Below, one piece after another: positions 5,861 through 62,404 of a stretch of DNA of 64,000 nucleotides. The position numbers and the translations under genes are program-made. The notes beneath the pieces were generated by a model. That model made no database searches and had not been told where the DNA came from. It saw only the letters and a list, made by a program, of their open reading frames with translations. Within the stretch, counting starts at the first letter, position 1, and every line of letters begins with the position of its first letter. The DNA is from Candidatus Deferrimicrobiaceae bacterium. Its GTDB lineage: Bacteria > Desulfobacterota > Deferrimicrobia > Deferrimicrobiales > Deferrimicrobiaceae. Location of the stretch: positions 64,001 to 128,000 of the forward strand of contig CAWBVY010000004.1 of the NCBI GenBank assembly GCA_963792415.1, in the 5' to 3' direction.

Positions 5861-8366
<2,506 letters not shown>

Positions 8367-8630: not shown

Positions 8631-8658
8631 CCCCCTCCTGCGGCGACTCCGCCGAAGG

Positions 8659-11295: not shown

Positions 11296-11365
11296 GGCGT
11301 CACCCCCCGTACGGATCGATCCGTTCCGAAGTACGTTACCACGACTCCCGGCATACAATGCGCAC

Positions 11366-11737
11366 ATGAGGGAGAGAGCGGCCATCCTGGTCTTCGATGC
11401 GGATTGCCCCGTGTGCCGCGCGGCCGCCGACTGGGTCCGGCGCAGCGCCGCCGTTCCCGACGCCTTCGAATATCTCCCCTGCCGCTCCGCGGAAACCCGT
11501 TCGCGATTCCCCGCGATCTCCGAGGCCGCATGCCTTGAGGCGATGCACCTCGTCCTGCACGACGGAACGATTCTCGCCGGGGAACAGGCGCTCCCCGAGA
11601 TCCTGCGCCGCACGCGGCGATACCGGTGGGCCGCCGTCCTCTTCCGGCTCCCCGGCGCCGGGATCGTGTCGCGCCTCCTCTACCGCGCCTTCGCGCGCCG
11701 ACGCCACGGGGTCTCCCGCCTTTTGCCTCCGAGGTGA
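11366..11737 (+). CDS. DCC1-like thiol-disulfide oxidoreductase (DUF393)
   Basis: VFDADCPVCR (DxxCxxC) motif. Confidence 0.8.
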   Translation: MRERAAILVFDADCPVCRAAADWVRRSAAVPDAFEYLPCRSAETRSRFPAISEAACLEAMHLVLHDGTILAGEQALPEILRRTRRYRWAAVLFRLPGAGIVSRLLYRAFARRRHGVSRLLPPR

Positions 11738-11921
11738 ATCGTCCCCGTGCCTGGAAGGGAGCCGGGAAATCCTGCTGGGAAAACCCCGGGAATGCCACGT
11801 CTCCCCCCCCCCACCCCCCAAAAAATTCTCGTGGGTGCGATGGTGGCCGGATCATGTATAATCAGCGGACGCGGGGTAGAGGCAGCGGTTCCGCAGCCCG
11901 GGGAATGGACGGGGAGGGGCG

Positions 11922-12656
11922 ATGATCCGGTTCGAGGGCGTCCACAAATGGTTCGACAAGCTGCACGTGCTGAACGACATCAACCTTCATGTGCGGACGG
12001 GCGAGGTCGTCGTGGTCTGCGGCCCCTCCGGCTCCGGGAAGTCCACCCTCATCCGGACGATCAATGACCTCGAGCCGATCAACGAGGGGAAGCTGTTTGT
12101 CGACGGGAAGGACCTCTCGGACAAGAAGACCGACATCAACAAGCTGCGGGCGGAGATCGGCTTCGTCTTCCAGCAGTTCAACCTCTACCCCCACCTCTCG
12201 GTCCTCAAGAACATCACCCTGGCCCCCATGAAGATCCGCAACAAGAGCCGGCAGGAGGCGGAAAAGAAGGCCCTCGCGCTCCTCGAGCGCGTCGGGTTGT
12301 CCGAGAAGCGGGACGCCTACCCGTCGCAGCTCTCGGGCGGCCAGCAGCAGCGGGTGGCGATCGCGCGGGGGCTCGCGATGGACCCGAAGATCATGCTCTT
12401 CGACGAGCCGACATCGGCCCTCGACCCCGAGATGATCGGCGAGGTTCTCCAGGTCATGAAGGACCTGGCGCTCTCGGGGATGACGATGGTCGTGGTCTCG
12501 CACGAAATGGGGTTCGCCCGGGAGGTCTCCCAACGCATCATCTTCATGGACTTCGGGACGATCCTGGAGGAGGCCCCTCCGGAGCAGTTCTTCAAGAACC
12601 CGCAACACGACCGGGCGAAGCAGTTCCTGAAGCAGATCCTTTCGCCCATGCACTGA
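11922..12656 (+). CDS. Polar amino acid ABC transporter ATP-binding protein (GlnQ-like)
   Basis: [17 protein letters not shown] and [11 protein letters not shown] motifs. Confidence 0.93.
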
Positions 12657-44684: not shown

Positions 44685-44891
44685 TTACGAGCGATACTTG
44701 AAGGAGATGTTCACCCGTGCCCGGTAGGCGACGACCTTATTCTTGTCGATCGCCATGTCCAATTTGACGACTTCCGCGACCCTGAGGTCCTCGAGGGACT
44801 TCCCGGCGGTCTCCACCGCGTTTTTCGCGGCTTCCTCCCACGATGTCTTGCTCGTGCCCACGATTTCGATGACTTTGTAAACGCTGTCCAT
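44685..44891 (-). CDS. Dodecin family flavin-binding protein
   Basis: VYKVIEIVGTS.TSWEEAAKNAV...YRARVNISF. Confidence 0.88.
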   Translation of the reverse strand: MDSVYKVIEIVGTSKTSWEEAAKNAVETAGKSLEDLRVAEVVKLDMAIDKNKVVAYRARVNISFKYRS

Positions 44892-45072
44892 GGCTCCTCT
44901 CCTTCCCGGGCGGATTTTGCTCTCATCGGATCGATCAACCACGTTTCATGGTACCACTCTCCCTCTGGAGCCGCGCGCGCTTTCGTTCGCCCCCCTGGGG
45001 ATCACCGCGCGGGGAACCGTCGGGAAATCGACCGGTTCCCCCTTCCTGCCGGGAGGGAACTATGTATACTGT

Positions 45073-46697
45073 ATGCAAAATCGGAGATTCCTCGCAGAAA
45101 TGCCTTGGCGAAAAAGCATAGCAATGAAGATCATCCTGAGCGTCGTCGGGATGATCCTGATCGTGAACGGCGCCCTGGCGTACCTTTTTCTCGACATCCA
45201 GGGGGAAAACCTCAACCACGCGATCCACCGGAACGCCTCGCAGCTCAGCGAGACGATCAAGAAATCGATCCAGAACGACATGCTCGAGAACCGGAAGGAA
45301 GCCGCCTACAAGATCATGGAGACGATCGGAGGGCAGGAGGGGATCGAAAAAGTCCGCGTCTACAGCTCCGAGGGGAAGATCCTCTTCTCCAGCGGCAACC
45401 CGGGCGAGGTCGGCCAGATGGTCAACCAGAAGGCGGAAGCCTGCTTCGGGTGCCACGCGGAAGCCCGCCCGCTCGAGCGGCTGGAGACGTCCGGACGGAG
45501 CCGTGTTTTCTTTTCCGAGCACGGCGACGAGGCGGGCGGCACGAACCACCGCGTCCTCGGGATCATCAATCCGATGTACAACGAGGCTGGCTGCTCCTCC
45601 GCGGCGTGCCACGCCCACCCAATGTCGCTGAAGGTCCTGGGGGTGATCGACGTCACCATGGACCTGAGCGAGGTGGATAACCAGATGACCCTGGCGCGGC
45701 GCCAGGTCCTGGTCGTGAGCGTCGTCTCGCTGGTCGCCATCTGCATCATCGTCGCCCTCATCCTCCTCCACTTCATCGAAAAGCCGGTCAAGGAGTTCGT
45801 CCTCGGCACGAAGCGGATCTCCGGGGGGATCTCGACCATTTCATCAACGTCACGACGAACGACGAGATGGGGCACCTGGCGATGTCGTTCAACCAGATGA
45901 CCCTGGATCTTCAGAACGCGCAGAAGGAGATCCAGGAGGGGATCCGGAACCTGGAGCAGAAGGTGGAGGAGCGGACGCAGGAACTCAAGGCGACCCAGTC
46001 GCAGCTGCTGCATTCGGAGAAGCTTGCGGCCGTGGGGGCGCTGGCGGCGACCGTCGCGCACGAGATCAACAACCCGCTGACCGGCGTCTACACCTACATC
46101 CGGCTCATGGAGAGGAAGCTCGACCTGGGACAGCATGGGCCGGAGGATCTCTCGAGATACAAGGGGTTTCTCGACACGATGCGCAGGGAGGTCGAGCGGA
46201 CGACCGCCATCGTGCAGAACCTTCTCGACTTCACGCGGCCGAAGGACCCGCTCCGCAAGCCGATGAGCCTCGTCAAGGTGCTGGAGGAGTCCCTCGCCCT
46301 CGTCTCGAACAAGCTGAGCCTCAGTAACATCGCGGTGGTGAAGGTTCTGAACCCCCTACCGGATATCCAGGCCGACCCGGCGCACATGAAGCAAGTGTTG
46401 CTCAACCTCCTCATCAACGCCTGCGAAGCGATGGAAGAGGGGGGAACCTTGACGATCCGGTCCGATCACCACCCGGATGCGAACACCGTGACGATGAGCT
46501 TTCACGACACGGGGAACGGAATAGAGGAAAAGGACCTGGCGCGGATCTTCGACCCCTTCTTCTCCACGAAGAAGAAGGGGACCGGGCTGGGCCTCTCGGT
46601 CGTCAACGGCATCGTGACCCGCCACGGCGGCAAGGTGGAAATCGACAGCGCCCCCGGGAAGGGAACCGATTTCCGGGTGACCCTGCCCGTCGGGTAA
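45073..46697 (+). CDS. Sensor histidine kinase with periplasmic heme-c motifs and HAMP domain; frameshifted at G6 (45823-45828)
   Basis: TM, CFGCH, CSSAACH, TM, HAMP; second frame has VAHEINNPL, NLLINA, DTGNG and GTGLGL. One extra G would fuse the two frames. Confidence 0.85.
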
Positions 46698-46712: not shown

Positions 46713-47267
46713 ATCGGCAACGTCATCTACATCCGGCCTGTCGGGGCTGTGGAACACGGGATCCTCCAATGGCTGAGGAAAGAGATGGGTGACTGCCTCA
46801 TGGCGACCGTACGGACGCTTCCGGCGCTCCCCGTTCCACCCGAAAGCTTCGAGGCCCGCCGGAACCAGTACTATTCGACGAGGATTCTCAAGGAGATGCT
46901 CGGGGAGGTCCCGCAGGACGCGCTCAAGCTCCTGGGGGTGACGGACAAGGACCTGTGCATCCCGATCCTGACGTACGTCTTCGGGGAGGCGCAGGTGGGC
47001 GGGACGGCCGCCGTCGTTTCCCTCGCCCGGCTGCGACAGGAGCATTACGGGCTGACGCCGGACCGGCCGCTGCTCCTGGAGAGACTTCGCAAGGAAAGCC
47101 TCCACGAGCTGGGGCATACGTTCGGCCTCGTTCATTGCCCGTTGAGGGAATGCGTGATGTACCTTTCGAACACCGTGGTGGACGTGGACACCAGGGGGCG
47201 GGATTTCTGCATGGGTTGCCAGACGGTCGTGGCGTCAAAAAACACCGCGGCGGAGAGGCGGGGATGA
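46713..47267 (+). CDS. Archaemetzincin-family Zn metalloprotease (M54)
   Basis: HELGHTFGLVHC...CVM...FCMGC; possible ATC start at 46713 (the ORF track starts at GTG 46749). Confidence 0.85.
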   Translation: MGNVIYIRPVGAVEHGILQWLRKEMGDCLMATVRTLPALPVPPESFEARRNQYYSTRILKEMLGEVPQDALKLLGVTDKDLCIPILTYVFGEAQVGGTAAVVSLARLRQEHYGLTPDRPLLLERLRKESLHELGHTFGLVHCPLRECVMYLSNTVVDVDTRGRDFCMGCQTVVASKNTAAERRG

Positions 47268-48631
47268 CGATGGAGAAGAAGGTCAACATCATGGTGGTGG
47301 ACGACGAGGAAATCGTCCGGGCTTCGCTGACCGGCTGGCTCGAGGAGGACGGGTATCACGTGGAGGCCGTGGAGAGCGGCAGGAAGGCGCTGGAACGCCT
47401 CCCCGAGAGGAGCTGGGACCTGATGCTCGTGGACCTGAAGATGCCCGGGATGGACGGAATCCAGCTGATGGACGAGGTCCACAAGACGGCGCCCGAGATG
47501 CTGGTCATCATCATGACGGCCTACGCGACGGTCGACACCGCCGTGAAGGCGATGAAGAAGGGGGCCTACGACTATTTCGTCAAACCGTTCAACCCCGACG
47601 ACATCTCCCTGACGATCCGGAAGATCGTGGACCATCACAAGCTCGTCCAGGAGAACCTGTTTCTGCGGAAGGAGCTCAAGAAGCAGTACAAGCTGAGGGA
47701 CATGATCAGCAAGAACGAGAAGATGCTGGAGATCTTCGACCTGGCGCGGACCGTGGCGAAGAGCAGCTCGACGGTCCTCATCCAGGGCGAGAGCGGGACG
47801 GGGAAGGAGCTTCTCGCGCGGGCGATCCACGACGAAAGTCCCAGGATGGACGCCCCGTTCATCTCGGTGTCCTGCGCTTCCCTCACGGAATCCCTGCTCG
47901 AGAGCGAGCTCTTCGGGCACGAAAAGGGGGCCTTCACCGGCGCCACCGTCCTGAACCGGGGGAAACTGGAGCTCGCCCAGGACGGGACCCTCTTCCTGGA
48001 CGAGATCGGGGACATCAGCCTGAAGCTGCAGATGGACCTCCTCCGCGTCCTCGAGCAGCGGGAGTTCCGGCGGGTCGGGGGGTCGGAACTGATCCCCATC
48101 AACTCGCGGATCATCGCCGCCACGAACCGGGACCTTTCGGCCGCGATCGCGGAGGAACGGTTCCGCGCCGATCTCTACTATCGCCTGAACGTCATCTCCA
48201 TCCACATCCCGCCGCTGCGGGAGAGGAGGGAGGATATCCCGCTCCTGATCGACCACTTCATCGAGAAATTCAACATCGAGATGGGGAAGGAGATCCGCGG
48301 GATCAGCGAAGGGGCCGTGAGAATCCTGATGGGCAACGATTGGCCGGGGAACGCGCGGGAACTTCGGAACGTCATCGAGAGGGCGGTGGTCGTCGCCAAG
48401 GGGAACATCGTCACCGAGTCCGACATCACCCTTCCGTCCACCGCTTCCGGCGCGAATCACCGGACGAAATCGCTCGAGGAGATCGAGAAGGCGCATATCC
48501 AGGTGGTCCTGAACGAGCACCAGTGGAACATCGTGCGATCCGCCCAGGCGCTCGGGATCGACCGGGTCACCCTCTACAACAAGATCAAGAAATTCGGCTT
48601 GAAGAAGGAAGGGGCGGCACCGAAGGGGTGA
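47264..48631 (+). CDS. Sigma54-dependent response regulator (NtrC/AtoC family)
   Basis: Receiver DLKMP, GESGTGKE, GAFTGA, FLDEIG, WPGN and Fis-type HTH. Confidence 0.93.
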   Translation: MTMEKKVNIMVVDDEEIVRASLTGWLEEDGYHVEAVESGRKALERLPERSWDLMLVDLKMPGMDGIQLMDEVHKTAPEMLVIIMTAYATVDTAVKAMKKGAYDYFVKPFNPDDISLTIRKIVDHHKLVQENLFLRKELKKQYKLRDMISKNEKMLEIFDLARTVAKSSSTVLIQGESGTGKELLARAIHDESPRMDAPFISVSCASLTESLLESELFGHEKGAFTGATVLNRGKLELAQDGTLFLDEIGDISLKLQMDLLRVLEQREFRRVGGSELIPINSRIIAATNRDLSAAIAEERFRADLYYRLNVISIHIPPLRERREDIPLLIDHFIEKFNIEMGKEIRGISEGAVRILMGNDWPGNARELRNVIERAVVVAKGNIVTESDITLPSTASGANHRTKSLEEIEKAHIQVVLNEHQWNIVRSAQALGIDRVTLYNKIKKFGLKKEGAAPKG

Positions 48632-48695: not shown

Positions 48696-50039
48696 TCATG
48701 CTCCGAGCAAGCGGTCGGGAAGCCACATCACGATGTCCGGGAACATCGCGAGCAGCATGATATAGATCGCCATGATGGCGATGAACGGCAATACCCCCCA
48801 CATGATTTCCCGGAACTTGATGTCCGGCGCGATTCCGTTGATGACGAACAGGTTCAGGCCGACGGGAGGGGTGATCAGCCCCATTTCCATATTGATCGTC
48901 ATCACGATGCCGAACCAGATCGGGTCGAACCCGTGAGCGAGAATTCCCGGCATGACCACCGGCGTCACCATCAGGATGATCGCCACCGGCGGCAGGAAAC
49001 ATCCCAGCACCAGCAGCAAAACGTTCACCCAGAAGAGGTAGGCCCACTTCGACATATGCAATCCGACAAGCCACTCCGTCGCGCTTTGGGAGATGTGAAG
49101 GTAGCTCATCACATAGGTGAAGAGGAAGGCCATGGCGATGATCATCATGATCATGCACGATTCCCGGGCGGTGCCCGCAAGAATCCCCTTGATGTCCTTC
49201 CACCGGTAGGTCCGGTACACGATCGCGACGAGCGCCATCGCCCCGAATGCGCCGACCGCCGCCACTTCCGACGGGGTCGCAAAGCCGCCGTACAGGGCCA
49301 CCATCACGACCAGGACCAGGATCAAAAACGGGAGCAGCCGCGGGAGGGTTTGCAGCCGCTCCCGCCACGTGAAGTTCTCTTCCCTGAGCATCTCTTTCGC
49401 CAGCTCGCCGCCCTGCCCCGCCTGCGCGCGCCGTTTTTCCCGCAGGAACGCGAGCACGACCCAGGCAGCGAACCAGGACGCGAGAAGGAATCCGGGGATG
49501 ACCCCCGCAAGAAACAGCTTCCCGATCGACTGCTCGACGATGATGCCGTAAATGATCAGGGTGATGCTGGGCGGAATGAGGATCCCGAGTGTCCCCCCGG
49601 CCGCGATCAGGCCGGATGCCAGTGCCGGCGAATACCCGCGCCTGCGCATCTCGGGAATGCCCATGCCGCCGATCGCCGCACAGGTGGCCGGACTGGAGCC
49701 GCACATGGCGGCGAAGATGGAACAGCCCGCCACGTTGGCGACGCCCAGGCCGCCCGGCAGCCGGTAAAACCAGCGGTGCATCGACTCGTACAGGTCGACG
49801 GCCGCGCGCGTCTTCCCGACCGCGGAACCCATGAAGATGAACAGGGGAATCGCCAGGAGCGTGAAGTTGTTCAGTTCGCCGTAAATCGTTTCGGCAATGA
49901 TCTGGATGTTGCTGGCGGGAAGGAAGAGAAACATGAACGTGACGGCGACTCCCCCGAGGGCAAACGCGATCGGAATGCCGCTGAGAAGCAGCAGCAGCGC
50001 GGAACCGATATAGAGAACTCCTATGGAAAAAACGTCCAT
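48696..50039 (-). CDS. TRAP transporter large permease (DctM/MatM-like)
   Basis: LLAIPLF, GTLGILIPPS, ATPSE and ITPPVGLNLF motifs. Confidence 0.9.
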   Translation of the reverse strand: MDVFSIGVLYIGSALLLLLSGIPIAFALGGVAVTFMFLFLPASNIQIIAETIYGELNNFTLLAIPLFIFMGSAVGKTRAAVDLYESMHRWFYRLPGGLGVANVAGCSIFAAMCGSSPATCAAIGGMGIPEMRRRGYSPALASGLIAAGGTLGILIPPSITLIIYGIIVEQSIGKLFLAGVIPGFLLASWFAAWVVLAFLREKRRAQAGQGGELAKEMLREENFTWRERLQTLPRLLPFLILVLVVMVALYGGFATPSEVAAVGAFGAMALVAIVYRTYRWKDIKGILAGTARESCMIMMIIAMAFLFTYVMSYLHISQSATEWLVGLHMSKWAYLFWVNVLLLVLGCFLPPVAIILMVTPVVMPGILAHGFDPIWFGIVMTINMEMGLITPPVGLNLFVINGIAPDIKFREIMWGVLPFIAIMAIYIMLLAMFPDIVMWLPDRLLGA

Positions 50040-50040
50040 G

Positions 50041-50550
50041 CTACGCCTTTCGAACGGGAGGAGCGAGCAGGTCGTCAATGATCTGAACGACAAGCTGAAG
50101 GGTCAGCGTGGTCATCCCCAGCGACATGAAGAAGTAGGGGATCCAGAGCCTGGGCGCCCAAATGGAGTCGGTCACCCACCCTCCCTCCCAGGCCTCGAAG
50201 AAATAGCGCCACATGTAGAAGGAAATAAACGCGCAGAACCCGGCCGACAGGATGTCGGCGAGCAGGTGCCGCCACCAGTTCCACCGGGGCGACAGAAGGC
50301 TTTCCAGCACCTCGATCCCGACATGGGCGCGCCATTCCTGCGTAAACGCGGCGGCCATGAAGGTCGAGGCGATCAGCAAAAAGATGTTCAGCTCGAGGTG
50401 CCAGTCATGGGGCGCCCGGAAGAAATAGCGCGCCACGACCTCGAACGAGATCGCGACCGTGGATAAAACGATCAGAAGCGCACTCCCATAGCCCATGACG
50501 AGGTTGACCCGCCGCATCACGAGCTGGAATGGCCCCCAGGCTCGCCGCAT
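50041..50550 (-). CDS. TRAP transporter small permease (DctQ/MatQ-like)
   Basis: Four TM segments, EVVARYFF and AHVGIE. Confidence 0.85.
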   Translation of the reverse strand: MRRAWGPFQLVMRRVNLVMGYGSALLIVLSTVAISFEVVARYFFRAPHDWHLELNIFLLIASTFMAAAFTQEWRAHVGIEVLESLLSPRWNWWRHLLADILSAGFCAFISFYMWRYFFEAWEGGWVTDSIWAPRLWIPYFFMSLGMTTLTLQLVVQIIDDLLAPPVRKA

Positions 50551-50566
50551 GTCGGTACCGCCGGAG

Positions 50567-51595
50567 CTACTTCACCGATACTGCCATGTCGATCAGGCGC
50601 TTCCCGTCCTTGACCTTATCGGCGAAATCCTTCCATGCGCTTTCCGCGGCAATCTTGCGCCACTTCGCGAACATCGCCTCGTCCATGTCGTGAACGGCAA
50701 CACCGGCCTTGGTGTACACGTCGGCCACCCGCTGGTCATCCTCCTTGGCGGATTTCACCGCGAACGCATCCAGGGAAGCGCCCACCTCCGTGACGATCTT
50801 CTGCTGTTCCGGGGTGAGACTGTCGTAGGTGGACTTCGCCATCAGGAGCGGCTCGAACATGTACCAGAAGGTCTTGTTCCGGGCCGTGGTCACGTGCTTT
50901 CCCACCTCGTAGAGCCGGTAGCTCACAAGAGAACCGCTGGAAGTCCAGAGTCCGTCGGCCACCCCGGAATGCAGGGCGCTGTAGGCTTCGTCCGACGGGA
51001 AGCTGACGATCGCGCCACCGGCCGCCTTGAGCATGATCTCGATCGACTTCCCGGCGCCTCGCAACTTCAGGCCTTTTATATCTTCCGGATTGAGAATCGG
51101 TTTGTCCCGGGAGACGTTGCCCCCCGCCTGCCATACCCACGTGATGATCTTGACGCCGTTCTCCTCCACGGCCTTCGTTAGCTCCTGCCCGATGGGAGCC
51201 GTCTTCCACCGCAACCCCTGCTCGTAGCTCGTGATGAGCGCCGGCATGAGCGTGATATTGGCGATCGGCAGTTTCCCGCCCTGGTACGCCAGCGGGAAAA
51301 CGGACATGTCGAGCGCACCCTTCGACATGGCATCGAATTGCAGTCTCGATTTCACCAGCGATCCGGCAGGGTAGATCTCGAACTTCAACGCGCCATTCGT
51401 GCGTTTCTCCACTTCCTGCGCGAACTTCCGCGCCAGGCGATCCCGGAAGTCCCCCTCATCCGCGGTGCCGCCGGGGAACTGATGGGAGATCTTGATGACG
51501 CGTGCATCCTGCGCGTGGGCCGGAGGCGAAGACGGGAAGAGGAACATCCCGGCCAGGATCAAAGGTAGTGCAAACCTCGTTATGCAAGTTTTCAT
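50567..51595 (-). CDS. TRAP substrate-binding protein (DctP/MatP-like)
   Basis: Signal peptide, PEDIKGLKLR and AYSALHSGVADG. Confidence 0.88.
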   Translation of the reverse strand: MKTCITRFALPLILAGMFLFPSSPPAHAQDARVIKISHQFPGGTADEGDFRDRLARKFAQEVEKRTNGALKFEIYPAGSLVKSRLQFDAMSKGALDMSVFPLAYQGGKLPIANITLMPALITSYEQGLRWKTAPIGQELTKAVEENGVKIITWVWQAGGNVSRDKPILNPEDIKGLKLRGAGKSIEIMLKAAGGAIVSFPSDEAYSALHSGVADGLWTSSGSLVSYRLYEVGKHVTTARNKTFWYMFEPLLMAKSTYDSLTPEQQKIVTEVGASLDAFAVKSAKEDDQRVADVYTKAGVAVHDMDEAMFAKWRKIAAESAWKDFADKVKDGKRLIDMAVSVK

Positions 51596-51869
51596 TTCAT
51601 CCCCTCCTTTTGTGGTGCTGGCCTGGCCAGCAGAACCTCAATTCATGCGGGTCAATCCATATTATTGTTCCCCCGCTGAAATGGGAGTAGCGCGAGGATT
51701 TCCGTTACCCCGTTCCGCCGCAGCAAAACGCCGTCTCTGAAAAGGTAATTCGGATTATCCCACAGAAGACGGCTTCTTTCCATCTTCCCGGTGAGAAATC
51801 CGTGCCATGCCGGCACGCGGCATCAAGGACCAGACCCCAACAGAAGGGTTTTCCCCCTATAATGGTGAC

Positions 51870-53216
51870 ATGGGATCGTTGGGCCTGCTTCATACGTTCT
51901 CGAAAACCGTCGGCAGCCTCCGGGACCGCTTCCTTCCGCCCAAGCCAGGGAGGCAGGACATTCTGCGGCTTGCGGAGGCGCTCCTCTCCGGACAGGGGGA
52001 GGCATCCGACGTGGCAGTGGCCAGGAACTTTCTGGCGGCATATGACGCCCTGACGGAAGAAAAAAAACTTTTCTTCCTTACGCTTCTCGATCAGCAATTC
52101 GGCCCGGATCAGGTGCGCCTGGAACGGGCCCTCACGAAGTTCCAGGGGCAGCCGACAGCCCAGGCCGCGCAGGAAATGCGCGAAGCGGCCGAGTCGCGGC
52201 GCGAGGTGCTCTTTCGGCGGATCAACCTTTCTCCCGGCGGAACGAGGGGGCTCCTGCAGATGCGTGAGGATGTCTTGCGCAACCTGCCCGCCGTCCCGGA
52301 GCTGGCCTCCGTTGACGCGGATTTCAAACACCTCTTCTCGTCATGGTTCAACCGCGGATTCCTGGTCCTGCGGCGGATCGACTGGACCACGCCGGCCAAC
52401 ATCCTGGAAAAGATCATCCGATACGAGGCGGTTCATGAGATTGCCAGCTGGGACGATCTTCGCAGGCGGCTGGAACCGACGGACCGGCGCTGTTTCGCCT
52501 TCTTCCATCCAACGATGCAGGACGAACCGCTGATCTTTCTCCAGGTTGCCTTGACATCGGAGGTTCCCGTGGCGATCGTCCCCTTGCTGGCCGACGAAAG
52601 AAATCCGATCCCCCCCGGCAAGGCGACATTCGCCGTTTTCTATTCCATCTCCAACTGCCAGGTGGGGCTGAAGGGGATCCCCCTGGGCGACTTTCTCATC
52701 AAGCAGGTGGTGGAGGACCTGAAACGGGAGTTCCCGTCCCTGAAGACCTTCATCACCCTGTCGCCGGTCCCCGGATTCCTGCGCTGGCTGGCGCAGGAAC
52801 GGGGCAAGGAGGCCTCGCAGTATGTCACGGGCGAGGACAAGGACGTGCTCGCCCTGCTCGACACGCCGGACTGGCACATGGAAGCGAACGCGGCCAACCT
52901 GCTGAAACCCAGGCTTCTATCCGCCGTCGCCGCCTACCTGCTGGCGGTCAAGACGGAATCAGGAAAGCCGATCGACCCGGTTGCGCGCTTTCATCTGGGC
53001 AACGGCGCACGCCTGGAGAGAATTCATTGGCTCAGCGATCTGACCCCCAAAGGGTTAACACAAGCCGCCGGGTTCATGGTCAATTACCTCTACGAGCCTG
53101 ACCGGATCGAACGGAACCAGGACTCCTTCGCCCTGCATGGCGAAATCGTCTCTTCCCACGCCGTGCGGAAATACCTGCGCTCCGATATCCAGAAACGTAT
53201 CCCCTCCCCTTCCTGA
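51870..53216 (+). CDS. Malonyl-CoA decarboxylase (MatA-like)
   Basis: SSWFNRGFL, YEAVHEI, FYSISNCQ, TLSPVPGF and DPVARFHLGNGA motifs. Confidence 0.92.
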   Translation: MGSLGLLHTFSKTVGSLRDRFLPPKPGRQDILRLAEALLSGQGEASDVAVARNFLAAYDALTEEKKLFFLTLLDQQFGPDQVRLERALTKFQGQPTAQAAQEMREAAESRREVLFRRINLSPGGTRGLLQMREDVLRNLPAVPELASVDADFKHLFSSWFNRGFLVLRRIDWTTPANILEKIIRYEAVHEIASWDDLRRRLEPTDRRCFAFFHPTMQDEPLIFLQVALTSEVPVAIVPLLADERNPIPPGKATFAVFYSISNCQVGLKGIPLGDFLIKQVVEDLKREFPSLKTFITLSPVPGFLRWLAQERGKEASQYVTGEDKDVLALLDTPDWHMEANAANLLKPRLLSAVAAYLLAVKTESGKPIDPVARFHLGNGARLERIHWLSDLTPKGLTQAAGFMVNYLYEPDRIERNQDSFALHGEIVSSHAVRKYLRSDIQKRIPSPS

Positions 53217-53234
53217 AACGGCACCCGATGGCCT

Positions 53235-53306
53235 GAAGGAAGGGGCGGCGCCGAAGGGGTGATGATTAACTCAACAGGCTGCTGAATTCCGCAACACAAT
53301 AATCCG
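53235..53306 (+). repeat. Direct repeat copy B
   Basis: Encodes a KEGAAPKG-stop remnant identical to the regulator C-terminus. Confidence 0.85.
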
Positions 53307-53360
53307 TAACAAATTCAACATGTAATCTTTCCCCGCCGGGAAGTGTAAAGAATATCAACA
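53280..53360. promoter_or_regulatory. Putative enhancer (UAS) sites for the sigma54 activator
   Basis: TGCTG-N7-CAACA at 53280 and TGTAA-N7-CAACA at 53344; the duplicated copy at 48649 is the perfect palindrome TGTTG-N7-CAACA. Confidence 0.55.
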
Positions 53361-53460
53361 ATTTCCGGTTTTCCGTCCCTTCCGCCTCCCCGCACACCTC
53401 AGGCCAATTACTCTTTTATTAACAGATGGATATACGGCGCATGCCGATCTGGACCGGAGC

Positions 53461-53475
53461 TGGCACAACCATTGC
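53461..53475 (+). promoter_or_regulatory. Sigma54 -24/-12 promoter
   Basis: TGGCAC-AACCA-TTGC matches the consensus; AT-rich tract upstream. Confidence 0.85.
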
Positions 53476-53523
53476 GGTAGTGAGGTGCGCGGGAGGTCGT
53501 CCCCGCGGAAGGAGGTGGGAACG

Positions 53524-53604
53524 ATGGGGTACCTGGTGATCGGAATCGCGTACATCGTTCTGGCGGTCGTCGCGGTGGTGAAACCGCGGGCGGACCACGC
53601 ATGA
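53524..53604 (+). CDS. Small 26-aa single-TM peptide MGYLVIGIAYIVLAVVAVVKPRADHA
   Basis: AAGGAGGT RBS, ATG, hydrophobic helix; first ORF after the sigma54 promoter; below the ORF-track size cutoff. Confidence 0.55.
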   Translation: MGYLVIGIAYIVLAVVAVVKPRADHA

Positions 53605-53662
53605 AACGTTCCCGGGAGTCGAGCGGGTGAACCGGACCACCGAAAGGAAAAGGGGTGCGCAG

Positions 53663-54373
53663 ATGAAAGAGACGAGATGCCCTTTTCTGGAGACGAAAAC
53701 CGTGACGTTCTGCAAGGCGTTCCCGTCGAAGATGATCCCGGTGGACCGGCTGTACACCTCGGAGAGCCTCTGCACCACCTGCCACTTCGAGGAATGCTCC
53801 CTGTACAACGAGGTGGCCGGCGCCGGCAAGGGGATGGAGAATGTCCGGGGATTTCACCTAAAGTCGGGGTACTACTACCACCCCAAGCACCTGTGGGTCG
53901 CCCCGCACGACGGGGAAGAGGGCGAGGCCCGGGTGGGGATCGACGACTTTTCCGCCCGGCTGGTCGGCAGGGTCGACCGTGCGTCGGTGCCCGCGGTCGG
54001 CGTGGCGGTGAAGGAGAACCACGTCTGCTTCCTCCTCCACTCCGGTCCTCGGACCGCCCACCTGGTTTCGCCCGCCAACGGGGTCGTCAAGGCGGTGAAC
54101 CCGAAGGTGGCCGCGGATCCCTCCCTGCTCAACGACGATCCGTACGGCGAAGGGTGGATCTTCTCCCTGCAGCTCAAAGGGGACGCGGTGAAGGGGCTGT
54201 ACCACGAGACGGTCGCCCGGAAGTGGTACGAGAGCGAGGTCGAACGGCTGCAGCGGGTCTTCTCTTCCGACCTGGGGATGACGGCGACGGACGGCGGGGA
54301 GGCGCTCACGGACATCAGCGGCCGGTTGAACGACGCGCAATGGGGAAAGATCGTCAGCCAATTTCTGGGGTAA
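53663..54373 (+). CDS. GcvH-like protein 1 with Cys-rich N-terminal domain and no lipoyl Lys
   Basis: HLWV, VGIDDF, SPANG and NDDPYGEGW; hairpin HSGPRT instead of ESVK. Confidence 0.8.
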   Translation: MKETRCPFLETKTVTFCKAFPSKMIPVDRLYTSESLCTTCHFEECSLYNEVAGAGKGMENVRGFHLKSGYYYHPKHLWVAPHDGEEGEARVGIDDFSARLVGRVDRASVPAVGVAVKENHVCFLLHSGPRTAHLVSPANGVVKAVNPKVAADPSLLNDDPYGEGWIFSLQLKGDAVKGLYHETVARKWYESEVERLQRVFSSDLGMTATDGGEALTDISGRLNDAQWGKIVSQFLG

Positions 54374-54389
54374 GAGCAGGAGGTGGGCC

Positions 54390-55064
54390 ATGGTAGTCCT
54401 TCTCGTCGTACTCACGGTTCTCGGATGTATCGCGGTGGACCTGGCCCTCAAGCGGAGGGAGAAGGCGGCGGCGGAAGCCCTTGCCGTCCGTGAGCCGGCC
54501 GCGCTGCTCCCTTCCCTGACGGCGCAGGAACTGCCCGGCGGCCTGTTCGTCCACAGCGGCCACACCTGGGCGAGGCTCGATGCCTCGGGCGCGGTGCAGG
54601 TGGGGCTGGACGGCTTCGCGCAGGGGATCCTGGGGAAGGTCGACCGGTTCGAGCTTCCCCCGGACGGGGCGACGCTGCGCCAGGGGGAGCCGGCGTTCGC
54701 CGCCCTCCAGTCGGGGAAACGGATCGAGTTCGTCTCCCCCGTCGACGGCGTCGTCTGCGCGGTGAACGAGGGGATCAACGCCGACCCGGCGGAGGCGCGG
54801 AAGGAGCCGTACGGGAAGGGGTGGGCGTTCCTGCTCCGGCCGTCCAACCTCTCCCGGGACCTGAAGAAGCTCCGGATCGGCGCGGAGGCCGCGGCGTGGC
54901 TGGAAAGGGAGGCGAAGAGCTTCACCGAGTTCCTCTCCCTGCACCGGGCGGTGCCCGTGGAAGTGGGGGCCACCCTGCAGGATGGAGGGATTCACGTCGA
55001 GGGAATCATGGAGAGCATGGACGGAGAGATTCTCCAGATCGCGATCCGGAAGTATTTCCGCTGA
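54390..55064 (+). CDS. GcvH-like protein 2 with N-terminal membrane anchor
   Basis: N-terminal TM, HTWA, VGLDGF, SPVDG and EPYGKGW. Confidence 0.8.
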   Translation: MVVLLVVLTVLGCIAVDLALKRREKAAAEALAVREPAALLPSLTAQELPGGLFVHSGHTWARLDASGAVQVGLDGFAQGILGKVDRFELPPDGATLRQGEPAFAALQSGKRIEFVSPVDGVVCAVNEGINADPAEARKEPYGKGWAFLLRPSNLSRDLKKLRIGAEAAAWLEREAKSFTEFLSLHRAVPVEVGATLQDGGIHVEGIMESMDGEILQIAIRKYFR

Positions 55065-55091
55065 CGCCTCACACCACGGGAGGAAAGAGAG

Positions 55092-56009
55092 ATGACCATC
55101 AGCAGACGGAACTTCCTGAAGGCCGCGGGTGCGGCCGGCGGCGCCCTTCTCGGGGGGGGCGCCGCGTCGGCCCGCGCCGCGCAGGTCCCGCAGACCTCGG
55201 CGGGAGGCGTCGAGTTCGACGGGATGCTCATCGACACGACGAAGTGCATCGGCTGCCGCGCCTGCGAGGAGGCGTGCAACGAGGCGAACCATCTCCCCAA
55301 GCCGAGGGTCTCCTTCTCCACCGAGAGCGTGTTCGAGGAGACGCGGGACACGACCACCGGCGCCTTCACGGTCGTGAACCGGTTCCCAAACGAGAAGAAG
55401 CCGCAGGAGCCGATCTTCGTCCGGAAGGAGTGCATGCACTGCAACCAGCCGGCGTGCGCCTCCGCGTGCCTGTGCCGGGCGATGGAGAAGACCAGGGAAG
55501 CCGCGGTCATCTACCACAAGGACCGGTGCATGGGGTGCCGCTACTGCATGATCGCCTGCCCCTTCGACATCCCGAAGTTCGAGTACGACAGCCCCACGCC
55601 TTTCGTGTGGAAGTGCATCTTCTGCAACGAGCGGCAGATGCGGGGGGAGCCGCCCGCCTGCTCCGAGGTGTGCCCCACCGGCGCGACCCTCTTCGGGAAG
55701 AAGCGCGACCTGCTGGAGATCGCCCGGAGCCGGATCTACACGGAGCCGGACAAGTACGTCCACAGGATCTACGGGGAGCACGAGGTCGGCGGGACCGGAT
55801 GGCTCTTCCTGACGGGCGCTCCGCCGGAGAAGCTGGGCCTGCGGACCAACCTGGGGACGACCCCCTACCCCGAGCTCACCTCCGGGTTCCTGTACGGAGT
55901 GCCCCTGGTGTTCGTGCTCTGGCCGTCGCTCCTCATCGGGCTGAACTACCTCATCAAGGATACCAAGGTCGACGAAACGAAGGAGGCCTCCCATGGCGAA
56001 CAGGACTGA
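55092..56009 (+). CDS. TAT-exported 4Fe-4S protein (HybA/HmcB/FdnH-like)
   Basis: SRRNFLK; CIGCRACEEAC, CMHCNQPACASAC, CMGCRYCMIACP and CIFC...CSEVCP; C-terminal TM. Confidence 0.9.
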   Translation: MTISRRNFLKAAGAAGGALLGGGAASARAAQVPQTSAGGVEFDGMLIDTTKCIGCRACEEACNEANHLPKPRVSFSTESVFEETRDTTTGAFTVVNRFPNEKKPQEPIFVRKECMHCNQPACASACLCRAMEKTREAAVIYHKDRCMGCRYCMIACPFDIPKFEYDSPTPFVWKCIFCNERQMRGEPPACSEVCPTGATLFGKKRDLLEIARSRIYTEPDKYVHRIYGEHEVGGTGWLFLTGAPPEKLGLRTNLGTTPYPELTSGFLYGVPLVFVLWPSLLIGLNYLIKDTKVDETKEASHGEQD

Positions 56010-57288
56010 CGCGGCGCCCGCGAGCGCCGAAGGCACCATGACCTTCCGGGAGGTGGCTCGGGAAACGATCCGGTTCGTCCTGAGCGAATTCAAACCGAAA
56101 GGGAAGATGCTGACGCCGTTCAACGTCATCACCGGGGGGATCATCCTCTCCGGCCTCGTGATGATCGCCATCCGGTTCGCCTACGGCCTGGGCGCCGTCT
56201 CCAACCTCTCCCAGAACTACCCGTGGGGGATCTGGATCGGCTTCGACGTGGTCACCGGCGTGGCCTTCGCCGGAGGCGCCTACGTCCTGACCTTCGTCGT
56301 CCACATCCTGAAGGTGAAGAAGTACGAGCCGATCGTCCGCGTGACCGTCCTCAACGGATTCCTCGCCTACGTCTTCTACGCCGGCGCGCTCCTGCTCGAC
56401 CTGGGGCGCCCCTGGAACGTCATCAACCCCATCATCGGGAACTCCTTCGGGTTGAGCTCCGTCCTCTTCCTGGTCGCCTGGCACTTCCTCCTCTACATGA
56501 TCTGCGAGTTCCTGGAGTTCTCCCCGGTCGTCGCGCAGTGGCTGAACTGGCCGAGGGCGCGCAGGATCCTGGAAGGGCTCACCACCGGCGCCGTCATCTT
56601 CGGGATCACCCTCTCGACGCTCCACCAGTCGGGCCTGGGGGCGCTCTTCCTCCTGGCCCCCTCGAAGATCCACCCGTTGTGGTACTCGGGGAACATCCCG
56701 GTGATGTTCTTCGTCTCCAGCGTCTTCGCGGGCCTTTCCATGGTCATGATCGAGAGCTTCTTCACGCAGAAGGCCTTCAAGGACCGGATCGGGCACGAGC
56801 TCCACGCGGCCCACGACAGCATCCTCCTCGGGCTGGGGAAGGGAGCCGTCGGCGCCCTCTTCGCCTACATCTTCCTCAAGCTCGTCGACTTCGTGCACTA
56901 CAAGCAGTGGGTCTACCTCGACACCCCGATGGGGTACTGGTACCTGTTCGAGATCGTCGGGTTCGTCCTCCTGCCGACCGCCCTCTTCCTCCAGGCGATC
57001 CGGCAGCGCAACCCGAAGCTCGTCCAGTTCACCGCGTTCCTCACGGCGATCGGGGTGATCCTGAACCGGCTCAACGTCTCCGTCATCGCGTTCAAGTGGT
57101 ACGAGGCCGTCCGGTACTACCCCTCCTTCATGGAGATCTGGGTGACGCTGGCGATCATCAGCATGGAACTCTGGGTCTTCCGGTGGGTGATCAACCGGAT
57201 GCCCGTGTTCGGAGAGGCGCATGAGGTGGTGGAGGAAAAAACCGCGGAAGACCTGGAGGTGGTCACATGGAAGGCACCAGCTTTATAG
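55993..57288 (+). CDS. NrfD/PsrC-family membrane protein (HybB/HmcC-like)
   Basis: YPWGIWIGFDV, DLGRPW, STLHQSGLG and KIHPLWYS motifs. Confidence 0.9.
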   Translation: MANRTDAAPASAEGTMTFREVARETIRFVLSEFKPKGKMLTPFNVITGGIILSGLVMIAIRFAYGLGAVSNLSQNYPWGIWIGFDVVTGVAFAGGAYVLTFVVHILKVKKYEPIVRVTVLNGFLAYVFYAGALLLDLGRPWNVINPIIGNSFGLSSVLFLVAWHFLLYMICEFLEFSPVVAQWLNWPRARRILEGLTTGAVIFGITLSTLHQSGLGALFLLAPSKIHPLWYSGNIPVMFFVSSVFAGLSMVMIESFFTQKAFKDRIGHELHAAHDSILLGLGKGAVGALFAYIFLKLVDFVHYKQWVYLDTPMGYWYLFEIVGFVLLPTALFLQAIRQRNPKLVQFTAFLTAIGVILNRLNVSVIAFKWYEAVRYYPSFMEIWVTLAIISMELWVFRWVINRMPVFGEAHEVVEEKTAEDLEVVTWKAPAL

Positions 57289-57959
57289 ACATCTACGCCA
57301 CGAAGGGGATCGAGTACCTGATCGTCATCTCGTTCCTCGCGGCCTTCGTGCTCTTCTGCCGCTACATGTACCAGCCGCGCGAGGGGCAGGCGCGCGCGAG
57401 GATCGCCCCGGAGAGCGAGACCCGGTTCCGGATCCCCGAGGGGCTCTTCTACCACCAGGGGCACGGCTGGCTCCGGCCGGAGCCGGGCTCCATCGGCGTC
57501 GTCGGGCTGGACGACTTCGCCCGGAAGCTCGTCGGGAAGGTGGACGCCGTCGAGCTGCCCGCCGTGGGGTCCCGGCTGGCGCAGGGGGAGAAGGGGTGGA
57601 GCCTCGTGGTCGATTCCGACCGGATCCCGATGCTGTCGCCTGTGGCCGGCGAGGTGGTCGAGGTGAACGACGAGGTTCTCCGGTCCCCCGAGGTCCTGCG
57701 CCAGGACCCGTACGGCAAGGGGTGGCTGCTGAAGGTGAAATCTTCCAGGGTGGCGTCGAACACCCGGAACCTTCTCTCGGGAAAGCTGGCCAGGGCCTGG
57801 ATGGAAAACGCGCTCGACAATCTCCACCCGCTCCACGGCGAAACCATCGGCCCGGTCCTCCAGGACGGCGGTCTCCCCGTGGAGGGGATCGCGCGGATAC
57901 TGGGCGGCCCCGAATGGGTGGAGCTGGCGAAGACGCACCTGCTGACGGACGGGGAGTAA
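57267..57959 (+). CDS. GcvH-like protein 3 with N-terminal TM (possibly HmcD-like) and no lipoyl Lys
   Basis: ATKGIEYLIVISF TM; HGWL, VGLDDF, SPVAG and DPYGKGW. Confidence 0.8.
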   Translation: MEGTSFIDIYATKGIEYLIVISFLAAFVLFCRYMYQPREGQARARIAPESETRFRIPEGLFYHQGHGWLRPEPGSIGVVGLDDFARKLVGKVDAVELPAVGSRLAQGEKGWSLVVDSDRIPMLSPVAGEVVEVNDEVLRSPEVLRQDPYGKGWLLKVKSSRVASNTRNLLSGKLARAWMENALDNLHPLHGETIGPVLQDGGLPVEGIARILGGPEWVELAKTHLLTDGE

Positions 57960-57967
57960 CGCGGACC

Positions 57968-58008
57968 CGGGGGACGCCCGCCGCGCATTGCGCGGCGGGC
58001 GTCCCCCG
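57968..58008 (+). terminator. Near-perfect 20-bp inverted repeat closing the operon
   Basis: cgggggacgcccgccgcgca-t-tgcgcggcgggcgtcccccg followed by cttt. Confidence 0.7.
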
Positions 58009-58111
58009 CTTTCCAAATCCGCCCTCCCGCCCTCCTGCCCGCGTCACGGATCACGCAGACCGCATGCCGGAGCATCGAACGTCCGCGCGAGGACGGGGAC
58101 CCCGCTCCGCT

Positions 58112-58140
58112 TTGACAGCCCGGCCACGGGCCGCTACTTT
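58112..58140 (+). promoter_or_regulatory. Sigma70-type promoter for the glycosyltransferase
   Basis: TTGACA-N17-TACTTT. Confidence 0.6.
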
Positions 58141-58204
58141 ATGAAAGGAGGCGCATCCCGCCTGGTATCGCCTCTGATGACCGCAGACCACGCCGGAGGG
58201 GGAA

Positions 58205-59470
58205 ATGGCCTGGTGGCTTCTCCTGGCGGTCGGGTGGACCGTCGCCGCCGTCTGGGCGGGTTCCGCGGTCCTCACGATCCGCTTTCTCCGCGGGAACAGG
58301 CTCGCGGAAAGGGCCGGGGCGACGGCGGATCCGGCGGTTTGGCCCAAGGTCTCGGTGGTGGTTCCCGCGCGGGACGAGGCGGACCGGATCGAAGAGGCCC
58401 TGGGGTCGCTGGCGAACCTCGACTATCCGGCTTTCGAGGTGATCGCCGTGGACGACCGGTCGACGGACGGAACGGGTGCCATCATCGACCGCGTGGCGTC
58501 CGGGGATCCCCGGGTGCGGGCCCTGCACGTAGCCGAACTGCCCGAGGGGTGGCTGGGAAAGTGCCACGCGATGCAGGCGGGGGCGCGGCTGGCCGGAGGG
58601 GAGCTGCTCCTCTTCACCGACGGCGACGTCGTCTTCGCCCCGGACACCCTCCGTCTCGCGGTCCGCTTCCTCCTCGCGCGGAAACTCGACCATCTGGCCC
58701 TCCTGCCCGGCCTCGTCCGCGGCGGATACTGGGAGGACGCCGCGAAGAGCTACTTCGCGATGCTCTTCATCGTGGGGGTCAGGGCCTGGGCGGCCGGTTC
58801 GGCGTCGAAGGGCGCCTACGTCGGCATCGGGGCCTTCAACCTGCTCCGGCGGGCGGCGTACGAGGCGATCGGCGGTCACGAGGCCCTCCGCCTGGAAGTC
58901 ACCGACGACCTGATGCTCGGGAAGAGGGTCAAGCAGGCCGGGTTCCGGCAGGACGCCCTCACCGCCTCCGACCACCTGCGTCTCCGCTGGCAGAAGGGCG
59001 TCGGGGGATTCGTCCGGGGGCTCGAGAAGAACGGATTCGCCGCGCTCGGGTTTTCGCTCCCCTTTCTCCTCCTCGTCACGGCCCTCGTTTTCCTCTTTTA
59101 CGCGGTCCCCTACCTCGGGGTTCTCTCCCTCCGTGACGCCCGCGTCTCCGGGTACGCCCTTTCCGTACTCCTGATGCACGGGCTCTTCGGGTACTGCGCA
59201 TCGTTCGAGCGGAACGGGTGGCTCCTCGCCCCTGCACTCCCGGTCGCCGCCTTCCTCTACCTCTTCGCCATCTGGCGCTCGGCGGTCGTCACCCTCCGCC
59301 GCGGAGGCGTCCGGTGGAGGGAGACCTTCTACCCTCTCGAGCTCCTGAAGCGCGGACGGGGGCCGCTGAACCACTTCATGTACGCGTATACGGAAGCGGA
59401 AGGGAAACCGCTCAGCGAGGACCTGTACGGGTATAACCCGGGCTGCAAAATCACGTTCCGGGAATTTTGA
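58205..59470 (+). CDS. Family 2 glycosyltransferase (HpnB/CrtQ-like, membrane-associated)
   Basis: VPARDE, DDRSTDGT, GWLGK, FTDGD and TDD motifs. Confidence 0.85.
   Translation: MAWWLLLAVGWTVAAVWAGSAVLTIRFLRGNRLAERAGATADPAVWPKVSVVVPARDEADRIEEALGSLANLDYPAFEVIAVDDRSTDGTGAIIDRVASGDPRVRALHVAELPEGWLGKCHAMQAGARLAGGELLLFTDGDVVFAPDTLRLAVRFLLARKLDHLALLPGLVRGGYWEDAAKSYFAMLFIVGVRAWAAGSASKGAYVGIGAFNLLRRAAYEAIGGHEALRLEVTDDLMLGKRVKQAGFRQDALTASDHLRLRWQKGVGGFVRGLEKNGFAALGFSLPFLLLVTALVFLFYAVPYLGVLSLRDARVSGYALSVLLMHGLFGYCASFERNGWLLAPALPVAAFLYLFAIWRSAVVTLRRGGVRWRETFYPLELLKRGRGPLNHFMYAYTEAEGKPLSEDLYGYNPGCKITFREF

Positions 59471-59649: not shown

Positions 59650-62404
<2,755 letters not shown>

Follow-up and report, generated by a model that had tools for sequence, protein, structure and literature searches.

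A candidate σ54-controlled Fe-S/NrfD membrane module with lipoate-free GcvH-fold accessory proteins in a Deferrimicrobiaceae bacterium

The stretch of DNA analysed here (the window; 64,000 nucleotides, nt) covers positions 64,001 to 128,000 of contig CAWBVY010000004.1 in the genome assembly of a Candidatus Deferrimicrobiaceae bacterium (GCA_963792415.1) and holds, at 53461–58008, a single tightly packed plus-strand operon in which genes for an iron-sulfur (Fe-S) protein and an integral membrane protein of the NrfD family are combined with genes for three proteins of the GcvH fold (H1, H2, and H3) and a membrane micro-protein of 26 amino acids (aa). The chance is about even, in our judgement, that the products constitute a σ54-controlled inner-membrane complex, with the Fe-S/NrfD pair as its quinone module and the GcvH-fold proteins as adaptor or regulatory subunits. 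Such a complex would join a known quinone module to a new and widespread set of accessory and control proteins, and it looks undescribed. The operon consists of the following elements, from the promoter to a terminator-like hairpin; TAT denotes twin-arginine translocation.

53461–53476, plus strand: σ54 (−24/−12) promoter, TGGCACaaccaTTGCg (TGGCAC-N5-TTGC at 53461–53475)
53524–53604, plus strand: single-helix membrane micro-protein of 26 aa, MGYLVIGIAYIVLAVVAVVKPRADHA (ATG start, GGAGG upstream)
53663–54373, plus strand: H1, soluble GcvH-fold protein with N-terminal Cx10Cx19Cx7C, C-terminal DGG extension, and hairpin HSGPR (GCV_H, 71.7 bits)
54390–55064, plus strand: H2, N-terminally anchored GcvH-fold protein with DGG extension and hairpin QSGKR (GCV_H, 67.6 bits)
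55092–56009, plus strand: TAT-exported 4x[4Fe-4S] protein with a hydrophobic C-terminal tail, HmcB/HybA-like
55993–57288, plus strand: NrfD-family integral membrane protein, HmcC/HybB-like (Pfam NrfD, 47.8 bits)
57267–57959, plus strand: H3, N-terminally anchored GcvH-fold protein with DGG extension and hairpin VDSDR (GCV_H, 75.4 bits)
57968–58008, plus strand: terminator-like hairpin with a 19-bp G+C stem, then GCUUUCC (−51.8 kcal/mol)

The promoter element matches the GG-N10-GC consensus and lies 48 nt from the micro-protein ATG. Within the operon, neighbouring genes are 16 or 27 nt apart or overlap by 17 nt or, for NrfD and H3, 22 nt, and this tight packing suggests co-translated subunits; the closing hairpin has a z-score of −8.26, and none of 200 shuffled sequences was equally stable. 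A preliminary description of this DNA, made from the letters alone, had proposed one operon with this gene order between a σ54 promoter and a strong hairpin, and every element was found where it had been placed.

All three H proteins score above the Pfam GCV_H (PF01597) cut-off of 22.2 bits and, at 58.7, 58.9, and 78.7 bits, below the gcvH equivalog cut-off (TIGR00527, NCBIfam; 115.85 bits). Aligned with the two short GcvH genes of the same genome, H1, H2, and H3 retain the fold motifs HxW, SPxxG, and PYGxGW, and the canonical ESQK position is replaced by HSGPR, QSGKR, and VDSDR, respectively, the same hairpins that the preliminary description had read. The lipoyl-Lys is lost: the site is Pro in H1 and Arg in H3, and a HMMER alignment puts the Lys of H2 one position past the lipoyl-Lys of E. 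coli GcvH, a shift that had also been noticed. When 140 family members were aligned with the three window proteins, the canonical column held Lys in five of them and the column after it held Arg in 57 and Lys in 38; because Arg and Lys interchange there, the site is not a lipoylation site, and lipoylation of the H2 Lys was ruled out on this ground. Judged by sequence, H1–H3 are not lipoyl carriers, as had been proposed.

Among the genes claimed at the outset to be absent from the window, those for cytochromes, lipoate enzymes, and GcvP are the part of the claim that stands: the window has no open reading frame (ORF) with two or more CXXCH motifs, LipA and the sole BPL_LplA_LipB-family match are encoded on contig 1, and GcvP (GDC-P, PF02347) was not found in the genome (100% complete by markers) in a search that covered all but 72 kb. 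GcvP is also missing from the conserved neighbours of the 80 related loci described below, a comparison in which T and L were not searched for. A short GcvH-like gene beside folD (L003 (G000:C10) 2894–3295, minus strand) has ESTT in place of ESVK and is also without the lipoyl-Lys; a short GcvH gene on C4 (L002 2982–3362) keeps ESQK and adjoins a methylenetetrahydrofolate reductase or homocysteine-methyltransferase-like gene.

The three H proteins share a C-terminal W...G....DGG extension that is absent from the genome's two short GcvH genes, and H2 and H3 have hydrophobic N-terminal anchors; both features agree with the preliminary description. The extension comprises about 60 residues, is helical, and has an invariant DGG. 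An Arg/Lys-rich segment follows the transmembrane helix of H2 and of H3, and neither protein has a conserved Cys. H1 has no membrane anchor, and its four Cys (Cx10Cx19Cx7C; the Cys4 module) are invariant in 20 of 20 orthologs; an AlphaFold2 model of the N-terminal 68 residues that bear them, made with 20 orthologs, has a predicted local distance difference test (pLDDT) value of 40, too low for the model to be of use, and an ESM Atlas look-up of residues 1–62 gave no usable match. A fourth H paralog, found in other phyla, has a different Cys4 module, CVWM-x13-C-x6-C-x2-C.

The fold itself is documented by an AlphaFold2 model for H3 based on 56 sequences (pLDDT 89.8; predicted template-modelling score 0.77), which comprises a transmembrane helix (residues 4–35), an H-protein core (61–166), and three additional C-terminal helices; the invariant D200-G-G lies in a loop, the least confident part of an otherwise confident model. 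In Foldseek comparisons the core superimposes on solved H-proteins with a root-mean-square deviation of 1.5–1.7 Å, including that of T. thermophilus (1onl_A; E 2.4e-13, template-modelling score 0.90, 1.7 Å) and 3a8i_E (also 0.90), and more weakly on S. pyogenes GcvH-L (5a35; E 1.8e-6); Foldseek gave no structural match for the C-terminal extension.

GcvH, GcvH-L, and LbpA have the same fold, and GcvH-L and LbpA are lipoylated. The window proteins differ from these in having no lipoyl-Lys and in adding an anchor or Cys4 module and the DGG extension, and differ from GcvH and LbpA in having an NrfD module as linked partner in place of T, P, L, or Hdr; a place beside LbpA in an sHdr system is contradicted by the lack of Hdr genes among the conserved neighbours of the 80 loci and of a Lys at the site. 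NqrA and RnfC contain lipoyl-like barrel-sandwich-hybrid domains that are cofactor-free and lie on the cytoplasmic face of membrane redox pumps; their likeness to the window H proteins is by analogy only, with no detectable sequence relationship.

A profile of the three H paralogs, searched against 1.84 billion cluster representatives, matched 10,444 proteins at E ≤1e-3, 4,336 at 1e-10, and 614 (clusters at 50% identity) at 1e-30; the best 150 matches are mostly 210–245 aa long and align through the C-terminal extension. The closest database proteins come from metagenome-assembled genomes (MAGs) of Candidatus (Ca.) Deferrimicrobium and Deferrimicrobiaceae, and every named close relative is annotated “glycine cleavage system H protein.” Because members carry this annotation, metabolic reconstructions of sediment and soil lineages mis-score glycine cleavage, and a respiratory or redox-sensing component of these lineages is hidden.

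The other half of the operon encodes a recognizable electron-transfer pair. The Fe-S protein has a TAT signal (SRRNFLK; TIGR01409, 25.2 bits, cut-off 16.7) and sixteen Cys forming four cluster motifs (Pfam Fer4_11, 4Fe-4S dicluster domains, 62.5 bits); its top NCBIfam families are HmcB (352.9 bits, cut-off 420) and then HybA (233.7 bits, cut-off 263), both missed, and its nearest solved chain is FdnH (1kqf_B, E 3.3e-35). The NrfD protein matches Pfam PF03916 over profile positions 2–303 of 313 (cut-off 25.8 bits), likewise falls short of its top NCBIfam families, HmcC (388.1 bits, cut-off 550) and HybB (239.9 bits, cut-off 450), and is unusually conserved, with 41 orthologs, drawn from several phyla, showing a mean column identity of 63%. 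Many anaerobic respiratory chains meet the quinone pool through NrfD-type modules, whose part in energy conservation is debated. Quinone reactivity of the pair encoded here is suggested by family membership only.

Two known systems resemble this pair most. Desulfovibrio HmcABCDEF, whose HmcB and HmcC are the best-matching families, likewise has a TAT-exported Fe-S subunit with a C-terminal anchor and an NrfD subunit; the operon described here differs from it in having no HmcA cytochrome, HmcD, HmcE (heme b), or HmcF (CCG), in that GcvH-fold proteins hold the accessory positions, and in that most organisms carrying it do not reduce sulfate. The second-best families, HybA/HybB of E. coli hydrogenase 2, form a two-subunit, periplasm-facing quinone module of the same architecture; here, by contrast, no hydrogenase structural or maturation gene lies between promoter and terminator. 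The possibility that the cluster is a fragment of an already characterized complex, which had been left for later examination, is not borne out for Hmc or Hyb, given the missed Hmc and Hyb cut-offs and the lack of any other Hmc or hydrogenase gene in the operon. To our knowledge, accessory subunits of the GcvH kind have never been reported for NrfD complexes, and a literature search (with most subscription journals outside it) found no paper linking GcvH-like proteins with NrfD modules or archaemetzincin. The accessible part of the Ca. Deferrimicrobium (MBNT15) genome paper describes other Fe-S/NrfD-cytochrome clusters and not this one (PMC9386147).

The linkage of these genes is conserved. 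In a survey of 40 sampled relatives, full-length H3 orthologs (E ≤1e-60) occurred in 20 of 24 genomes of the genus, three of seven of a second family in the class, and one of nine from other families of the phylum, and two orders recurred: H1-H2 and H3 about 2.2 kb apart, or H1-H2-H3 contiguous. A wider scan of one genome per species (185,579 species), seeded on a ten-sequence H3 alignment and H3-type motifs, matched 599 stretches (an estimated 680 or so in all), 511 of which encode a relative. The best 80 of these 511 confirmed loci, a set biased to relatives of the query and to H3-type genes only, come from Deferrimicrobia, Anaeromyxobacter, Myxococcales, Syntrophus, Syntrophales, Syntrophorhabdus, and other Thermodesulfobacteriota, and further from Chitinophagales, other Bacteroidota, Ignavibacteriaceae, Calditrichaceae, Gemmatimonadetes, and MAGs labelled Limnocylindria, so that at least seven phylum-level groups are represented; the Anaeromyxobacter and Syntrophus relatives are present as MAG records only. 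An Fe-S or NrfD gene is present in 71 of the 80, and the suspicion that the linkage might not be conserved can be set aside: the cluster is a real, conserved unit. Clustering of ORF families over the same loci gave 80 with H, 68 with NrfD, and 64 with Fe-S genes.

Where at least 3.5 kb was available on each side of H3 (36 loci), both the Fe-S and the NrfD gene are present in 32; the four exceptions are H-only arrays, and in three of these four genomes an NrfD ortholog is encoded elsewhere (E ~1e-205 to 1e-217), none having been found in the fourth, a MAG of unknown completeness. Gene order varies and membership is kept: with B for the Fe-S and C for the NrfD gene, the arrangements include H1-H2-B-C-H3, H1-H2-H3-B-C, H-B-C-H-H, and a divergent one (contig 6, see below). 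Even the micro-protein is conserved, in 23 of the 26 H1-type loci whose upstream sequence is long enough; the three that lack it are of the Thermodesulfobacteriota type.

Natural fusions reveal the orientation of the H domains and suggest what they might do. In P0184 and P0206, a signal peptide and four CXXCH motifs (cytochrome c) precede an H3-type transmembrane helix and then an H domain, which places the helix N-out/C-in and the H domain in the cytoplasm, in agreement with the Arg/Lys-rich segments of H2 and H3 and with the cytoplasmic location supposed in the preliminary description. Receiver (REC) domains are fused to H domains in P0135, P0213, and two genes of locus L040 (2752–4818), a cluster with two heme kinases, where one REC stands between the membrane anchor and the H domain; the REC-fused H domain stands where an output or protein-binding domain would. 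By their domain order, these natural fusions suggest a regulatory or adaptor role for H domains.

The DGG extension has a counterpart outside the H proteins. At 11 loci, of Syntrophales type (L038, L043, L044, L051, L052, L054–L056, L059, L067, and L078), a small transmembrane protein (70–120 aa) without an H domain is encoded immediately before the Fe-S gene or H array; its C-terminal part consists of an invariant LG[LF]TMADGG and, after that, a tail that is acidic or rich in lysine. The word LG-x4-DGG is common to these proteins and the H extensions; because the small proteins carry it without an H domain, DGG is a portable cytoplasmic motif and not merely part of the fold.

The cluster is accompanied by genes for a two-component system and a peptidase, which in the window stand upstream of the operon, as follows.

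44890–46697, plus strand: sensor histidine kinase with a periplasmic CXXCH + CX4CH(AH) domain (Pfam HisKA and HATPase_c on 45867–46697)
46749–47267, plus strand: archaemetzincin, peptidase M54 (PF07998, 89.4 bits; NF033823, 153.1 bits, cut-off 145)
47264–48631, plus strand: σ54-dependent response regulator (Sigma54_activat, 230 bits; Response_reg, 109.6 bits; HTH_8, 49.4 bits)

The kinases carry their heme motifs (here CFGCH and CSSAACHAH) between two transmembrane segments; the regulator consists of REC, an AAA+ σ54 interaction domain, and a Fis helix-turn-helix; and the M54 protein has an intact zinc site, HELGHTFGLVH (HExxHxxGxxH), plus four downstream Cys. We know of no role for the archaemetzincin family in bacteria. 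Cluster-linked orthologs of the response regulator occur at 51 of the 80 loci, of the histidine kinase at 49, and of M54 at 47, so the co-occurrence with M54 and heme-kinase genes that the preliminary description had envisaged holds at 47 and 49 loci, respectively. The order is kinase-M54-regulator upstream of the cluster in Deferrimicrobia and kinase-regulator-M54 downstream of it elsewhere. A tripartite ATP-independent periplasmic (TRAP) transporter (dctM, dctQ, dctP, minus strand) and a malonyl-CoA decarboxylase gene (48696–53216) separate the regulator from the operon in the window; because this block is absent from the closest relative (L004, 91% identical), where the regulator ends about 265 nt before the micro-protein, it looks like an insertion.

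A scan for σ54 sites scoring at least 10/11 found them upstream of 26 of 66 cluster starts vs. 45 of 3000 random windows of 330 nt. The sites are mostly at H1-led clusters, with none for Syntrophales- or Bacteroidota-type loci under the start definitions used, and promoter conservation holds only for part of the family. In Geobacter, the CbcBA quinol oxidoreductase, a redox-responsive, quinone-linked inner-membrane module, is under the σ54 regulator BccR; the likeness lies in an inner-membrane quinone-linked module switched on by a σ54 activator, and the difference in the b- and c-type cytochromes of CbcBA, which has no GcvH-fold subunits.

From this material the following mechanism is proposed. 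The core would be a periplasm-facing module in which a TAT-exported, tail-anchored Fe-S protein with four [4Fe-4S] clusters is joined by a cofactor-less NrfD-family subunit that would provide the quinone site; most likely it moves electrons between the menaquinone pool and periplasmic redox proteins, as do Hmc, Hyb, Psr, Nrf, and Qrc. Its redox partners are probably multiheme cytochromes c encoded elsewhere, the likeliest candidates because multiheme cytochrome ORFs adjoin the cluster in L059, L040, L082, and L083, because cytochrome-H fusions exist, and because of Ca. Deferrimicrobium physiology, described as cytochrome-rich in the accessible part of the genome paper (PMC9386147). The three GcvH-fold paralogs and the micro-protein would be accessory subunits, with one transmembrane helix each in H2, H3, and the micro-protein and all H domains, including that of Cys4-bearing H1, on the cytoplasmic face, where they may act on the NrfD protein as adaptor or regulatory subunits through the conserved cytoplasmic LG-x4-DGG loop. 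Expression would be set by the linked two-component system, the periplasmic c-heme sensor kinase and the σ54 activator, and the archaemetzincin probably matures or turns over one component. Association of the H proteins with the module, its reactivity with quinones and cytochromes, the direction of electron flow, and regulatory roles for the H proteins and M54 are all inferred.

An adaptor or regulatory role is favoured over a redox role for the H proteins because no electron path to the cytoplasm is visible: a heme-b protein is absent, and alignments show no conserved His in the transmembrane helices of H2, H3, or the micro-protein. This preference is further supported by the REC fusions, by the flexible, invariant DGG loop, and by the close linkage with protease and two-component genes. 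A complex prediction for NrfD with H3 scored 0.01 (mark 0.32), which counts neither for nor against binding.

Several observations weigh against this proposal. Having no ORF with two or more CXXCH motifs, the window encodes no redox partner or cytochrome subunit for the module, and the NrfD profile found no match by sequence among solved structures. The kinase frame changes inside a G6 run near 45822–45828 (sensor part 44890–45900, HisKA/HATPase part 45867–46697); the ortholog in L004 is continuous. The change reflects either a genuine frameshift that inactivates the gene or an assembly error in the homopolymer, and with the kinase frameshifted in this genome, regulation here may differ. P0130 (1391 aa, a distant subgroup) joins three Lys-less GcvH domains, with weak matches to Pfam RnfC_N and DUF2118, and an oxidoreductase part resembling HdrD or GlcD (FAD_binding_4, FAD-oxidase_C, 4Fe-4S dicluster, and two CCG domains) and suggests that redox chemistry takes place in the cytoplasm in at least one relative; the Cys4 modules of H1 and the fourth paralog would suit a redox or metal function that a pure adaptor role does not explain. 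Together these modules and the P0130 fusion may leave room for a cytoplasmic redox or metal function.

It is possible, though unlikely, that the system is primarily a signal device, in which the Fe-S/NrfD pair monitors how reduced the quinone pool or periplasm is and the H proteins transduce this signal to the kinase, regulator, and M54, the state of the transducer being reset, for example, by cleavage at the DGG loop and electron throughput being incidental. The REC-H fusions would fit, above all the transmembrane-REC-H protein in the L040 cluster with its two kinases, as would the linkage of kinase, regulator, and M54 genes at 47–51 of the 80 loci, the occurrence of the DGG motif on small transmembrane proteins without an H domain, and the low confidence of the DGG loop in the H3 model; an own σ54 promoter, however, fits a regulated effector better than a constitutive sensor, and a four-cluster Fe-S protein with an NrfD subunit of 63% column identity looks like a working electron-transfer module.

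We give rather little weight to a transmembrane redox complex, in which the Cys4 module of H1 would form an Fe-S centre and, with H2 and H3, a cytoplasmic redox module replacing HmcEF/DsrMK that would couple the periplasmic clusters to an electron donor or acceptor in the cytoplasm. In its favour, HmcB and HmcC are the nearest families for the Fe-S and NrfD proteins, and the Hmc complex includes an HdrD-like subunit on the cytoplasmic side; the invariance of the H1 Cys, the second type of Cys4 module in other phyla, and the joining of GcvH-like domains to FAD, Fe-S, and CCG domains in P0130 also agree with this arrangement. It would nonetheless need a wire across the membrane, and none is visible in the absence of a heme-b protein and a conserved transmembrane His; moreover, H2 and H3 have no conserved Cys, and the Cys4 domain, whose model reached a pLDDT of only 40, may hold either Fe-S or Zn.

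An improbable elaboration of the adaptor proposal is that the GcvH fold now serves the NrfD module as a cytoplasmic lid under phospho- and protease control. The invariant LG-x4-DGG loops of the H paralogs, and in some lineages those of the bare small transmembrane proteins, would dock on the NrfD subunit from the cytoplasm and gate its proton or ion path or its quinone turnover, and the archaemetzincin would trim these tails at Gly-Gly. If true, a bacterial M54 would gain its first physiological substrate, and the H-protein fold a new function that needs no cofactor. A genuine carrier function of the H-like proteins, for lipoyl or other acyl groups, in a glycine-cleavage- or sHdr/LbpA-like reaction, as the offset Lys of H2 and the genomic LipA and BPL/LplA/LipB-family genes might suggest, is highly implausible given the Arg/Lys exchange at the offset column, the rarity of Lys at the canonical one, the Pro of H1 and Arg of H3, the failure to find GcvP in the part of the genome searched, and the lack of T, P, L, or Hdr genes in the cluster; shifting the lipoyl-Lys by one residue reportedly abolishes lipoylation of an E2 lipoyl domain, in work attributed to Wallis and Perham (1994). 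The cluster offers a defined gene set in which the function of lipoate-free H-fold proteins can be tested.

A second, rearranged copy of the cluster lies on contig 6 (L001, G000:C6:276000-293000; 7040–12056) and is 94.6–99.9% identical to that of the window. Micro-protein, H1, and H2 genes (99.94% over 1581 nt) are followed directly by H3 (94.6% over 771 nt), and the pair of Fe-S and NrfD genes (99.24% over 2236 nt) lies about 430 nt away in divergent orientation; about 100 nt (window 57196–57298) are duplicated at the rearrangement junction. The H array has its own TGGCAT-N5-ATGCT element, and the Fe-S gene is preceded by a palindrome (TTGTATACAGTATACAA) and TATAAT. At 9750–9790 of L001, upstream of that gene, the palindrome is perfect, TTGTATAC-A-GTATACAA, with TATAAT after it; from its sequence it looks like an operator over a σ70 promoter. 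In the 17 kb examined, no kinase, M54, or regulator gene accompanies this copy.

Each of the relatives G021, G011, and G002 likewise holds near-identical paralogous copies in a single genome, a pattern suggestive of gene conversion or recent duplication. The contig 6 copy was considered as a possible assembly artefact and this was ruled out: both orders recur in relatives, and contigs from RNA libraries hold the contig-6-type H2-H3 junction (55066 to 57196) as well as the window order. These contigs, from four of four estuary metatranscriptome libraries, match most of 53.5–57.8 kb at 95–100% identity, a match that signifies near-identical sequence in RNA libraries, not proof of transcription, the contigs telling neither strand nor level. 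They give no cover at 57817–58300 and almost none at 53200–53540, which is not evidence of transcript ends.

Just downstream of the terminator-like hairpin, a family 2 glycosyltransferase (58205–59470; best NCBIfam HpnB, 170.8 bits, far under the cut-off of 379) is encoded, which is not conserved with the cluster. Oxidative-stress genes lie near both copies, KatG in the window (59650–61923) and a pyridine nucleotide-disulfide oxidoreductase, rubrerythrin, and tandem universal stress protein on contig 6 (L001 151–5616); their proximity may hint at oxidant sensing by the heme kinase or be coincidental.

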